From Methanocaldococcus sp. 28A (GTDB lineage: Archaea; AGJL01; Methanococci; Methanococcales; Methanocaldococcaceae), in assembly GCA_049852185.1 (NCBI GenBank), contig CP187540.1: a DNA stretch of 64,000 nucleotides. One strand, written 5' to 3'. Made by a program: the position numbers and the translations under genes. The notes beneath the pieces were generated by a model. The model had not been told where the DNA came from, did no database searches, and saw only the letters and a list, made by a program, of their open reading frames with translations. Of the stretch, positions 27,250-61,425 are shown piece by piece (position 1 is the first letter of the stretch; each line of letters begins with the position of its first letter).

Positions 27250-27302
27250 ATATATAAACAAGTCCCACCCATCTATCCCTATACATCACCGCCCCTAAGC
27301 AC
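27250..27302 (-). mobile_element. Short relic of the IS200/IS605-derived element at 37683-38014
   Basis: TATATAAA...GTCCCAC...CCCTAT...CATCACCGCCC resembles 37889-37990. Confidence 0.5.
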
Positions 27303-36545: not shown

Positions 36546-37277
36546 ATGATAAGGGAAATTTTTAGCTCAATAATGGGAGAAGGGAAATATATAGGAAGAA
36601 GGTTTATATTTGTAAGATTTGCTGGATGTCCATTAAAGTGTGTTTACTGCGATGAAAAAAGCAAAGAATATTTTAATAGAGTGGAAAAAATCCCAGGCAG
36701 TGGAGAATTTGAAACTTTACAAAATATGAAGATTGAAGATGTAATAAATGCTATAGACAAATTAAAAACACCAGATTTGTTTGCTATATCATTTACAGGA
36801 GGAGAGCCTTTATTATATCATAAACAAATAAAAGAAATCGTTGAAATTTTAAAAGATAAAGGATACAGAACATTTTTAGAGAGCAATGGAATGTTTCCAG
36901 AAAAAGTTTTTTATTTTGATATTGCATCTATAGACATAAAGCTGAGGGAACATTTTGACCATATAAAAGATGAAGATTATGAAAAACTCTACAAAAATGA
37001 GCTTAAAACAATAAAAAAGCTGTATAATTTAAATTCTGACGTCTATGCAAAGGTTGTTATAATGGAAAAAACAGATATAGAAGAAGTAAAAATAATAGCA
37101 AAGGATTTGAGTGATATAGGAAATATAACTTTATGCATTCAACCAGTAACACCTCATGGAAATATAAAATCTCCTTCTCAAAAGAAATTGTTTGAAATTA
37201 TGGAAGCTTGTGGAGAGTATTTGAAAGATAATGTTATGCTAACAATACAAATGCATAAGTATTTGGGGATGTTATAA
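36546..37277 (+). CDS. queE: 7-carboxy-7-deazaguanine synthase (radical SAM)
   Basis: EIFSSIMGEG, CPLKCVYCD, TGGEP, QMHKY. Confidence 0.93.
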   Translation: MIREIFSSIMGEGKYIGRRFIFVRFAGCPLKCVYCDEKSKEYFNRVEKIPGSGEFETLQNMKIEDVINAIDKLKTPDLFAISFTGGEPLLYHKQIKEIVEILKDKGYRTFLESNGMFPEKVFYFDIASIDIKLREHFDHIKDEDYEKLYKNELKTIKKLYNLNSDVYAKVVIMEKTDIEEVKIIAKDLSDIGNITLCIQPVTPHGNIKSPSQKKLFEIMEACGEYLKDNVMLTIQMHKYLGML

Positions 37278-37465
37278 CAGTATCTCAATATAAAACATTG
37301 AACAGTTATCAAAAAACGATTTTATAAACGAGGTTTTGCATACTAATCTAAGGATTTATAAAGTAAAAGAGTATACAAAAGGACTAAAGAAATATTCAAC
37401 AATTAAGAAAACTTATAATAAATGTAAAAATAAAAAATATTGGTAATAGATACTGAGGTGGCATT

Positions 37466-37678
37466 ATGAATACATTAAAATTAAAGGGTGATAATAAAGA
37501 GAATTATAAATTATATTGGCATATTTGGTATATATTATTTGGAATTCTTCTTATCTTAATGTTTAATTTAAAACCTCCATATAAAACATTAATTATTGGG
37601 ACATTACTTATTATGATTTTATTTAGGATATCGATATTTTTTATTAGAATTTTAAAAATTACCAACGGCAAAATCTAA
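37466..37678 (+). CDS. Small hypothetical membrane protein
   Basis: GAGGTG RBS; two hydrophobic segments. Confidence 0.5.
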   Translation: MNTLKLKGDNKENYKLYWHIWYILFGILLILMFNLKPPYKTLIIGTLLIMILFRISIFFIRILKITNGKI

Positions 37679-37868
37679 TACTATGACGGCTCTCCGCCCT
37701 AAAGGGCGGAGTTTCGAGAGAGCGAGCCTAAGCTCGCCCTCTCCGGCCCCGCCAAAGCCACTACCCGTATCCCATTAGGGATTCGGGGCTACGCTTTAAC
37801 CATTTCCATGTCCCCAGCGGTGGAGTTTTCGATAACCCCACCAATTAATAACTTGGACTGGGGACATA
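37665..37868 (-). ncRNA. Putative stand-alone TnpB omega-RNA (scaffold plus flanking guide)
   Basis: TTTTATATA box about 21 nt upstream of ATGTCCCCAG; multiple GC-rich stems running to the IS right end. Confidence 0.65.
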
Positions 37869-38014
37869 AGTTAGTTTATTAATTCGAGTATATAAAAGTT
37901 ATGTTTGTCCCACTCACCTCCCCTATCTCCTTGCTTCGCAAGGAGAGTAATGAAATCTGAAAGATTTCATCTGAATTCATCACCGCCCTAAAGGGCGGTG
38001 CTTTCTTAGCGACA
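37683..38014 (-). mobile_element. Non-autonomous IS200/IS605 derivative carrying a putative omega-RNA gene
   Basis: Subterminal CCGCCCTTTAGGGCGG hairpins at both ends; right end ...GTCAT; TTTAT 5' of the left end; no ORF. Confidence 0.82.
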
Positions 38015-38170
38015 ATAAATGGTAAAACTATGAAAAATTTACCAATAATATTAAATAAGATTCATATAAAACTATAAAAAGAGTATAAAAAGAGAAAGAA
38101 TAAAACAAAAATTAAATAACTATTATTAATAACATAAGACACACTACCAATGAAAAAAATGAGGGAGATT

Positions 38171-38791
38171 ATGAATAAAGAAATATTAAAAAAGGTTATA
38201 GAACTAAAAAACAATGGGCTTACAATTGGAGAGATTGCTGAAGAACTCAACGTATCAATGGAAACAGCAAGATATTTAGTTTTAAATGCTGAGAAACTAT
38301 TAAAAGAGGAAGAAAAAACTATGAAACTTAAAAATGTAGATGTATTCATTAGTTGGAAAAATATTGGTTGTTCAGCAAATAGGTTAAAATGCATAAGCTC
38401 AATAATAGTTGATATCTTAAAAAGTAGGAATATTGAGTTTGATACTGTAGTAGGAATCTCTACAAGTGGTGTTCCTATAGCTACCTTAGTAGCTTCTGAG
38501 TTAGGGAAGGAGCTAACTATCTATATACCAAAAAAACATATATCTGAAGAAGGGAAAAAGATAACTGGTTCAATTTCACAAAACTTTTCTTCTGTAAATT
38601 ACAAAAGGGCTATTATTATAGATGACGTTGTAACAAGTGGAAGCACATTAAAAGAGTGCATAAAGCAATTAAAAGAAATTTGTAGCCCAAAATTTATAGT
38701 TGTATTGATAGATAAAAGTGGATTGGATGAAATTGAAGGAATACCATTAATTCCATTGATAAGAGTTGGAGTTGTAAATGTAGAACATTAA
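38171..38791 (+). CDS. HTH plus PyrE-like PRTase protein (GfcR family)
   Basis: GLTIGEIAEELNVSMETA HTH; GISTSGVP; IIDDVVTSGST; start MNKEIL preferred. Confidence 0.88.
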   Translation: MNKEILKKVIELKNNGLTIGEIAEELNVSMETARYLVLNAEKLLKEEEKTMKLKNVDVFISWKNIGCSANRLKCISSIIVDILKSRNIEFDTVVGISTSGVPIATLVASELGKELTIYIPKKHISEEGKKITGSISQNFSSVNYKRAIIIDDVVTSGSTLKECIKQLKEICSPKFIVVLIDKSGLDEIEGIPLIPLIRVGVVNVEH

Positions 38792-40251: not shown

Positions 40252-40896
40252 GTTTGAATAGTTAGTCCATTAAAACAAGGATGGAAACTCTTTTATTTTC
40301 TCGTATTGATTTGTACATCCAAGTTTGAATAGTTAGTCCATTAAAACAAGGATGGAAACGATTCAAACATTTTCATCAGATACATTCTTAATCACAAATA
40401 TGTTTCCATGTTTGAATAGTTAGTCCATTAAAACAAGGATGGAAACAAGAAATTATCAAAATTAAAAAAGGAAAAATATGCATTGTTTGAATAGTTAGTC
40501 CATTAAAACAAGGATGGAAACTGGTAATATTGTGCACAACTATGATTAGGCAATTGTGTTTGAATAGTTAGTCCATTAAAACAAGGATGGAAACAATATG
40601 GTTTTGCAAATGGCTAAAAGGGAAGGGTTAAATGTTGAAACGTTTGAATAGTTAGTCCATTAAAACAAGGATGGAAACATTCTACTATTTCTATCATGCC
40701 CTATCACCTCCCTGTTTGAATAGTTAGTCCATTAAAACAAGGATGGAAACTCTACTATAACATTCAACAACCTCTTAAGCTCTAACGTTTGAATAGTTAG
40801 TCCATTAAAACAAGGATGGAAACAATAGGTGAAACTATGGCAACGACTTATGAGATAATGTTTGAATAGTTAGTCCATTAAAACAAGGAATAACAA
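40252..40896 (+). CRISPR. CRISPR array, 9 repeats (GTTTGAATAGTTAGTCCATTAAAACAAGGATGGAAAC, 37 bp) and 8 spacers
   Basis: Repeats start at 40252, 40323, 40410, 40485, 40558, 40642, 40714, 40787 and 40860 (last one degenerate); spacers are 34, 50, 38, 36, 47, 35, 36 and 36 bp. Confidence 0.99.
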
Positions 40897-40904
40897 ATAA
40901 AAAA

Positions 40905-61400: not shown

Positions 61401-61425
61401 ATGACGGTTCTCTACCCTAAAGGGC
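61401..61425 (-). mobile_element. Relic IS200/IS605 right end
   Basis: ATGACGGTTCTCTACCCTAAAGGGC compared with ATGACGGCTCTCCGCCCTAAAGGGC at 37683. Confidence 0.65.

Follow-up and report, generated by a model that had tools for sequence, protein, structure and literature searches.

A protein-free IS200/IS605 derivative in Methanocaldococcus with an omega-RNA-type scaffold and a hairpin from the middle of tnpB

IS608 of Helicobacter pylori takes TTAC as its target and carries a guide, AAAG, 5' of the hairpin in its left end (LE). The closest described relatives of the locus treated here are the palindrome-associated transposable elements (PATEs). In its passages on PATEs, the preprint of Meers et al. 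(PMC10055086) reports that these often encode omega RNAs, on which TnpB must act in trans, and notes omega-RNA PATEs for Geobacillus stearothermophilus. For Halobacterium salinarum, Gomes-Filho et al. (2015; PMC4615843) describe, in the sections of their paper given to such transcripts, a PATE-derived RNA, VNG_R0052, together with sense overlapping transcript RNAs (sotRNAs). Here we describe a PATE in a stretch of 64,000 nucleotides (nt), referred to as the window, from contig CP187540.1 of Methanocaldococcus sp. 28A (assembly GCA_049852185.1). The class of element is not new, because protein-free derivatives of the IS200/IS605 family of insertion sequences (IS) that encode stand-alone omega RNAs have been published. 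Of most interest for further work are the two-part origin of the RNA, in which a hairpin from midway along the nuclease gene is retained, and the conservation of that hairpin within the tnpB open reading frame (ORF). No paper in the literature searched deals with a two-part RNA origin, with TnpB in Methanococcales, with HgcC as PATE cargo or with a hairpin internal to the tnpB ORF. We think it likely that the PATE arose by two internal deletions from a tnpA–tnpB element of a TnpB clade with a shifted glutamate, and that its own promoter provides a guide RNA for TnpB in trans.

The locus is a protein-free IS200/IS605 derivative, and what a first-pass annotation, made from the letters of the window alone, had noticed here is real. 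The host genome (G000; 1.56 Mb in two contigs) holds three full copies, 97–98% identical and placed in unrelated loci with unrelated flanks: that of the window, copy b (G000:C1:1422319-1422661) and copy c (G000:C1:360160-360502). It additionally has one half copy and several micro-elements, one of which is a single hybrid hairpin of LE and right end (RE). There is exactly one Y1 tnpA and one close tnpB in the genome, adjacent in a full element at G000:C1:829310-831456, so that the search for an intact relative with matching ends gave one such copy. The homology is plain. The LE is 98% identical over 53 nt, the 3' domain and RE region is 74% identical over 117 nt (to G000:C1:829310-829434), and both ends have subterminal hairpins homologous to those of an element encoding Y1_Tnp and OrfB_IS605/TNB proteins. 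Between its ends the mini-element has no ORF of at least 40 aa. As a comparison set we used 12 distinct mini-elements of the same build, found in 7 of 17 genomes of the genus and ~70% identical to the window copy. Indels among these members disregard reading frame, and substitutions compensate helices. A coding reading of the RNA was considered for a 23-codon ATG frame in the window copy and rejected: its start, frame and length are not kept across members, the changes being helix-compensatory.

On the minus strand the order of parts is TTAC, LE, two optional hairpins, a G-rich box, the TATA box TTTTATATA, an A+T-rich spacer of 21–23 nt, an RNA-like stretch (37867-37683) and the flank (Table 1). 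The whole forms a G+C island (0.39–0.59) between flanks of 0.17–0.29. The motifs listed by the annotation on this strand, namely the LE hairpin, the two 9-bp hairpins, TTTTATATA, the 10-bp and 12-bp stems, the RE hairpin and GTCAT, are all present. GTCAT ends each of the 12 mini-elements, with 37683 as its last base in the window; the base beyond it varies in all 12, which upholds the right end as first placed. At the other end, TTAC precedes 11 of the 12 (the exception has ATAC) as well as the full IS copies, and the base 5' of TTAC varies. The TTTAT first taken for the transposon-associated motif (TAM) is internal to the element. Since TTTAT reads ATTAG or ATAAA in relatives, and since homology with the orthologous site in genomes G006 and G011 stops at T(A)AC on the left flank and resumes at AGT(T)ATTAG, the element extends from 38021 to 37683. 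The left junction is thus 38021/38022, 7 nt further out than the 38014 of the annotation, and CATTTAT is absent from the G006/G011 site; the right junction is where the annotation put it.

The element has been mobile. The motif TTAC is fixed and the flanks are otherwise unrelated, there are several copies, and at the orthologous site in G006 and G011 the neighbouring 70-aa ORF is present and the mini-element absent (with 12–15 extra bases at the junction). Two relics in the window that the annotation assigned to the same family, at about 27250-27302 and 61401-61425, are both real, the former a degraded LE with its G-rich box and the latter an RE on the minus strand. Clean empty sites for copies b and c were not found, b lying at a synteny breakpoint and c being flanked by multicopy repeats. 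In the region of copy b (G000:C1:1421717-1422663), the flank on the RE side and the radical-SAM gene of the window are 680 kb apart in the host genome, and their orthologues in five relatives are only 0.5–4.6 kb apart. The flank of copy c (G000:C1:359558-359978) is a multicopy repeat with dozens of matches of ~240 nt, ~70% identical, clustered in arrays in G014 and G007. The half copy (G000:C1:1407895-1408611) begins with the LE and breaks off 35 nt into the RNA, beside a DDE-transposase gene; its end coincides with the start of an opposite-strand ORF of 190 aa with weak matches to DDE transposases (ISC1217 type), and it was probably cut by insertion of another IS.

In the layout of its ends the element resembles IS608: TTAC lies 21 nt upstream of the foot of the LE hairpin, AAAG adjoins that foot on its 5' side, and cleavage at the RE falls ~9–10 nt past the RE hairpin. 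It differs in host domain, in the shifted RuvC-II glutamate of its TnpB and in ending GTCAT rather than TCAA. With the G. stearothermophilus PATEs, as far as the PATE passages of the preprint portray them (PMC10055086), it shares the lack of a protein gene, ends that match a resident IS, a guide-RNA scaffold and a need for TnpA and TnpB in trans. Unlike them it is archaeal (Methanococcales) and has a conserved internal TATA promoter exactly at the first helix of the RNA, and those passages do not describe an RNA that, like this one, is a fusion of two non-adjacent tnpB segments. The H. salinarum RNAs, in the account that the relevant sections of PMC4615843 give of them, are again similar in that VNG_R0052 belongs to a transcribed fusion of LE and RE, as our element would if expressed as predicted, and in that the sotRNAs come from the 3' end of IS1341-type tnpB with its RE hairpin. 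They measure 99–275 nt, have a UUCA tetraloop and, in those sections, no described promoter or ORF-internal module, whereas the RNA of the window has the RE loop UUUA and lies outside genes. The suggestion that it might be of the sotRNA type therefore falls, because the RNA overlaps no gene (there is no tnpB at the locus) and the loop is UUUA, not UUCA. On sequence grounds the element would best be filed as an IS200/IS605 PATE with omega-RNA-type cargo.

The RNA strand is highly structured. Its 204 nt fold at -101.8 kcal/mol, compared with -69.5 +/- 4.6 for shuffled sequences (z = -7.1; none of 200 shuffles is as stable), and the consensus of the full RNA over the 12 mini-elements comprises 45 pairs, 97.6% paired, seven of them with double changes. 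The structured RNA of ~185 nt reading into the flank, as first proposed, is borne out to this extent: its last 110 nt are homologous to the RE-proximal RNA of tnpB-linked copies. When this 3' domain was aligned for the 12 mini-elements and seven tnpB-linked sequences (copies from five genomes, the stretch covering the last tnpB codons and the RE), compensatory changes appeared at 9 of 21 pairs, for example C-G to U-A in seven sequences and C-G to G-C in seven sequences. The RE hairpin itself covaries, from CCGCCC/GGGCGG to CCGAGC/GCTCGG in 3 of the 12 members. Bacterial relatives of TnpB have the same layout of tnpB 3' end and RE. As in an omega-RNA scaffold, the domain is built from the tnpB 3' end plus the RE, and the RE abuts variable flank. 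In the 3' domain, the second helix has an apical loop (N'UUGG) that might contact the internal loop of the 5' hairpin (CCAAN); such a contact could not be established in 33 rows: CCAAG goes with CUUGG in 13 of 16 tnpB-linked rows and a Synergistota row is compensated (CCAAA with UUUGG), but 10 of 17 PATE rows (CCACG or CCATG) break the fourth pair.

The RNA is nonetheless not the simple right-end RNA that the annotation had envisaged, because the third of it nearest the 5' end originates midway along tnpB. This 5' domain matches tnpB codons ~131–157 (protein ...KHGIESKFLWVEFSKTLPLDAMQ...). In undisturbed copies of the gene the hairpin site lies 667–679 nt (~0.67 kb) upstream of the 3' domain, and in the full element of the host genome it is found at G000:C1:830423-830493; no match to the 5' domain was found beside the 3' scaffold of full elements. 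The mini-element is made up of the LE and promoter region, tnpB around codons 128–162, and tnpB from codon ~381 to the RE. The linker between the two tnpB parts differs in length between subfamilies, so the second deletion is not identical everywhere. Within the gene the segment folds in the same way (helix 1 of 14 bp, helix 2 of 9–10 bp; -26 to -41 kcal/mol). Covariation supports the structure of this module too: across 24 sequences (14 PATE, 10 tnpB ORF) 14 of 20 pairs are compensatory and 97.3% of cells are paired, values reached by none of 500 shuffles, and slid controls pair in 37–52%. A set restricted to ORFs (15 sequences, of which 14 are distinct) shows covariation at 11 of 22 pairs, with 98.1% of cells paired. 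Some of these ORF compensations alter the protein: in one example Met becomes Val and the partner change, in a His codon, is silent, in another Ala becomes Thr against a silent change in a Gly codon, and in a third Val becomes Ile and Pro becomes Ser together. Invariant U-G and G-U pairs on the RNA strand correspond to A-C on the opposite strand.

With a covariance model built for the hairpin (R1), the copy in the window scores 80.8 bits, and 13 of the 40 genomes of a phylum-level set have matches, none of them outside this tnpB clade and its PATEs, with 39 copies in G036 alone. In homologues 54–60% identical from Fervidobacterium, Caloramator and a Synergistota metagenome-assembled genome (MAG), R1 likewise places the hairpin at these codons; in more distant homologues (31–38% identical, haloarchaeal ones included) it found nothing. 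The pattern of substitution indicates that the ORF-internal hairpin is under structural selection in tnpB genes of both archaea and bacteria. The loop of helix 2 is enlarged in the tnpB gene of G014 by 45 nt, inserted in frame and forming two small hairpins; most mini-elements have a similar two-hairpin insert at this place. Two further observations concern the distribution of the hairpin. A copy from Fervidobacterium thailandense (L148 1584-1900) is shortened, with the hairpin 291 nt from the 3' scaffold compared with ~620–750 nt in full copies, and may be an intermediate toward a PATE. On a 2.5-kb contig titled as a Persephonella MAG, JALVKE010000285.1, there is a tnpB with the same internal hairpin, and its product and the TnpB of the host genome are 90% identical; this is either a recent transfer or a mis-binned archaeal contig.

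Why should a mini-element keep this hairpin? A tentative answer, to which we give somewhat less than an even chance, is that this TnpB clade uses a bipartite guide RNA, the hairpin that codes for part of the WED domain (codons ~131–157) being a second functional omega-RNA module ~0.67 kb upstream of the RE-proximal scaffold. The hairpin would then have been conserved from Methanococcales to Thermotogota, Synergistota and Clostridia by compensatory changes, even ones that alter amino acids. In an autonomous element the working RNA would span ~0.9 kb of tnpB mRNA, or the coding stretch would be removed to assemble it, and PATEs, in which the two modules are fused behind a promoter, would be the minimal natural form. 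Pairing of the splicing (bulge-helix-bulge) type at the two deletion junctions was tried and set aside, the duplex folds of eight genes being inconsistent, and no conserved TATA box was found ahead of the ORF-internal hairpin in 10 tnpB genes. If the hairpin does belong to the guide-RNA particle, the limits assigned so far to omega RNAs of this TnpB clade are too narrow, which would matter for the way TnpB guide RNAs are produced and for designing small TnpB genome editors.

The architecture of the promoter is conserved. The TATA box ahead of the RNA, pointed out by the annotation, keeps its TTATAT core in 10 of the 12 mini-elements, and its distance from the RNA is fixed, changing by one base at most. 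The full elements have an TTTTATGT box at the equivalent place after the G-rich box, upstream of tnpA, so that the promoter looks inherited from the LE-proximal region. In elements of G036, which belongs to another family of the order, the ends are different and a TATA box still stands ~24 nt before helix 1; elements of G039 retain the LE–promoter module of the window itself. G37865 is the first paired base of helix 1, and the equivalent G (in a TATG/TATTG motif) begins the Rfam HgcC model in sister elements. To judge from its placing, the TATA box would drive the RNA, and the locus would then be a natural compact guide-type RNA unit with its own predicted promoter in hyperthermophilic archaea. 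This conservation also bears on the possibility that the element is a decaying, functionless deletion remnant whose structure is inherited baggage. Relics and truncated copies of the family are indeed common. Members only ~70% identical nevertheless keep the promoter spacing and 97.6% of the base pairs, double compensatory changes included, the family is present in three genera, and the copies in the host genome are young and intact; we regard decay as the most improbable of the explanations considered.

If the element works as we think likely, the parts that remain of the ancestral tnpA–tnpB element (the TTAC-adjacent LE, the LE-proximal promoter region, a 60-nt hairpin of two helices, a short linker and the 110-nt scaffold spanning the tnpB stop and the RE) would act as follows. 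The single Y1 TnpA of the genome would move the mini-element in trans, as suggested by the 98% identity of the LEs and the three young copies. The TATA box would start the RNA at G37865, transcription would pass the right end and so add flank as guide, and the resident TnpB (G000:C1:829716-830888) would bind this stand-alone omega RNA. By analogy with published TnpB homing, the nuclease may then cut the joint of TTAC and flank left by excision, which at the donor site would read TTAC directly followed by AGTATTAG, and recombination would restore the copy.

The resident TnpB looks competent. It has OrfB_IS605 and TNB domains, and the residues D197, E335 and D371 recur without exception across six homologues. 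The canonical position of the RuvC-II glutamate is Gly in all six, with an invariant Glu 7 residues before the zinc finger, an arrangement that matches the TnpBs with a C-terminally shifted glutamate described in the relevant part of a preprint (bioRxiv 10.1101/2023.08.09.552727). Several observations weigh against a working pair of guide and nuclease. The resident tnpB carries a 3' tandem duplication of ~290 nt, which reduces its open frame to 396 aa, as against 412–445 aa in relatives; the duplication, at G000:C1:829435-829729, is an ORF-less second copy of residues 270–391 between the tnpB stop and the RE scaffold of this sole full IS copy. The 3' domain of the mini-element is only 74% identical to the scaffold linked to the resident TnpB, and cross-recognition is for this reason not assured. 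The element-free site in G006 and G011 is not clean, its 12–15 junction bases being unshared. TnpB of this clade is absent from 5 of the 13 genomes with the RNA 5' module (G002, G011, G012, G013 and G039, of which G002 and G039 are 99% complete), so that the presumed partner is not needed for the RNA to persist. Lastly, covariation of the LE and RE hairpins is equally expected from recognition of single-stranded DNA by TnpA.

The absence of the clade's TnpB from those five genomes, including the two that are nearly complete, also favours an alternative in which the RNA is made but is independent of TnpB, being a small RNA that is either selfish or recruited by the host. It could, for instance, serve as a decoy for TnpA (a role that Gomes-Filho et al., PMC4615843, propose for PATE RNAs in their discussion of them) or as a read-through antisense regulator of the convergent 70-aa ORF. 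The same sections report that overexpression of a PATE-derived RNA altered growth in Halobacterium, and read-through past the right end would cover the last 16 nt of ORF 37466-37678, so that the flank at 37663-37682 is antisense to it as the annotation had noted. The three copies in the host genome have unrelated flanks, however, and an antisense target therefore cannot be a property of the family. Both RNA modules are pieces of tnpB and of the RE scaffold and covary with the tnpB-linked versions, and the genome was found to hold no second match, as a TTAC-plus-guide site, to the guide of any of the three copies. A role independent of TnpB thus seems unlikely to us, though less so than the other alternatives.

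One of these takes up the last of the objections above: the helices may act as single-stranded DNA structures during transposition, any RNA being incidental. IS200/IS605 elements move as single-stranded circles of the top strand and TnpA reads DNA hairpins, as set out in the portion of PMC10055086 on their transposition, and the LE and RE hairpins do covary. The internal modules are harder to explain in this way. Micro-elements consisting of a single LE/RE hybrid hairpin exist without them, three element lineages that differ in their ends keep a constant spacing between the TATA box and the base with which helix 1 begins, the invariant U-G pairs favour RNA, and the position of the 3' domain matches that of known omega-RNA scaffolds. 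We hold an explanation by DNA structure alone to be improbable, and prefer the promoter-driven guide RNA set out above.

HgcC is an RNA reportedly found in Methanocaldococcus jannaschii by Klein and co-workers in 2002, and the annotation raised the possibility that the RNA of the window belongs to it. At gathering thresholds Rfam finds only a tRNA in the window. At E <=10 the region of the element gives sub-threshold matches to ARRPOF, GcvB, RNAI and HgcC, all driven by the LE or RE hairpin. The HgcC model (RF00062) scores the window RNA at 19.2 bits and reaches 24.8 bits at best in the host genome, compared with a gathering cut-off of 50 and with 66.6–150.9 bits for matches at other loci in relatives, which disposes of membership. 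Of the first interpretation as a whole, the mini-element, the promoter, the structured RNA and the right end have thus survived, and the TAM, the left boundary, the assignment to HgcC or sotRNA and the simple right-end origin have not.

HgcC has a connection with the element all the same. Thirteen of the 20 above-cut-off HgcC matches in the genus lie at most 62 nt downstream of a same-strand BLAST match to the LE–promoter half of the window element; one more has the module by eye, and two have it 1.1 kb upstream, with another gene between at G011:C25, so that the context count covers 16 of the 20. Judged by this context, the HgcC RNAs are cargo of sister mini-elements with the same LE and promoter module, and an orphan RNA family gains a genomic setting, with above-cut-off copies in sister mini-transposons that share LE and promoter. 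Like the window element, the HgcC elements have the LE, the optional hairpins, the G-rich box, the TATA box and the start position after it, a TTAC or TCAC flank and a terminal hairpin of RE type. Unlike it, they have an unrelated RNA body and an RE that ends GGTCAG, where the window has CGTCAT. At G011:C25:1200-3100 the LE module and the HgcC RNA are separated by another tnpB (371 aa, with its RuvC-II glutamate in the canonical place), which points the other way and replaces the usual TATA box; this arrangement looks like a nested insertion.

Table 1. Features of the mini-element, its surroundings and its relics in the window
Feature	Position	Strand	Basis or remark
Whole PATE	37683..38021	minus	339 nt; alignment of 3 full and 1 half copy, 12 family members and the element-free G006/G011 site
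TTAC target site / TAM	38022..38025	minus	directly 5' of left end
LE subterminal hairpin, 9 bp, loop TT, AAAG just 5'	37981..38000	minus	98% identical to LE at G000:C1:831404-831456
Two accessory 9-bp hairpins (optional LE insert)	37926..37970 (37950-37970, 37926-37946)	minus	pairing search
G-rich box GGGGAGGTGAGTGGG	37909..37923	minus	also in full IS copies and in elements of the HgcC type
TATA box TTTTATATA, predicted archaeal promoter	37889..37897	minus	putative function
Predicted transcription start, G37865 or A37867	37865..37867	minus	24-22 nt downstream of TATA box; first base of helix 1
RNA 5' domain, 60 nt: helix 1, asymmetric internal loop UCCAAGUU..., helix 2 (37834-37842 / 37819-37827)	37808..37867	minus	from tnpB codons ~131-157
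10-bp stem ATGTCCCCAG/CTGGGGACAT	37858-37867 and 37808-37817	minus	
Linker, remnant of tnpB just 3' of the internal hairpin (..GGTTAAAG)	37793..37807	minus	compared with tnpB flanks
RNA 3' domain, 110 nt, four helices including 12-bp stem 37716-37743	37683..37792	minus	homologous to tnpB 3' end + RE
RE subterminal hairpin, 9 bp	37692..37711	minus	9 nt ahead of GTCAT end
Flanking 20 nt, candidate guide by read-through	37663..37682	minus	antisense to end of ORF 37466-37678; putative guide role
Neighbour ORF, 70 aa, hydrophobic	37466..37678	plus	stop codon 5 nt from right end of element
Degraded left-end relic + G-rich box	27250..27302	minus	same family
Right-end relic	61401..61425	minus	same family

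The two accessory hairpins of the LE are absent from 3 of the 12 mini-elements and from the IS copies of G000, G006 and G007, and present in the IS of G014. They are one instance of a recurrent pair of small hairpins, one of a GAAATC...GATTTC type and one rich in G+C, inserted at four different places in the element family: in the LE (window 37926-37970), in the loop of helix 2, in the 3' domain within its first helix and, in the G036 elements, immediately ahead of the RE. The corresponding loci, beside that of the window, are L096 2205-2320, L036 1736-1890 and L120 660-740.

The neighbouring 70-aa ORF has no match to a Pfam family and is conserved without the mini-element in G006, G011 and G010. 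It lies with the element in a stretch of 880 nt (37278-38157), between a radical-SAM gene (36546-37277) and a phosphoribosyltransferase gene (38150-38791), that is missing in G014, G001, G005, G007, G012 and G002; in these six relatives the two genes are ~20–35 nt apart. Further along the window, at 40252-40897, is a CRISPR array with a 37-nt repeat (GTTTGAATAGTTAGTCC...GGAAAC) present nine times at a spacing of 71–87 nt, the last copy being degenerate.

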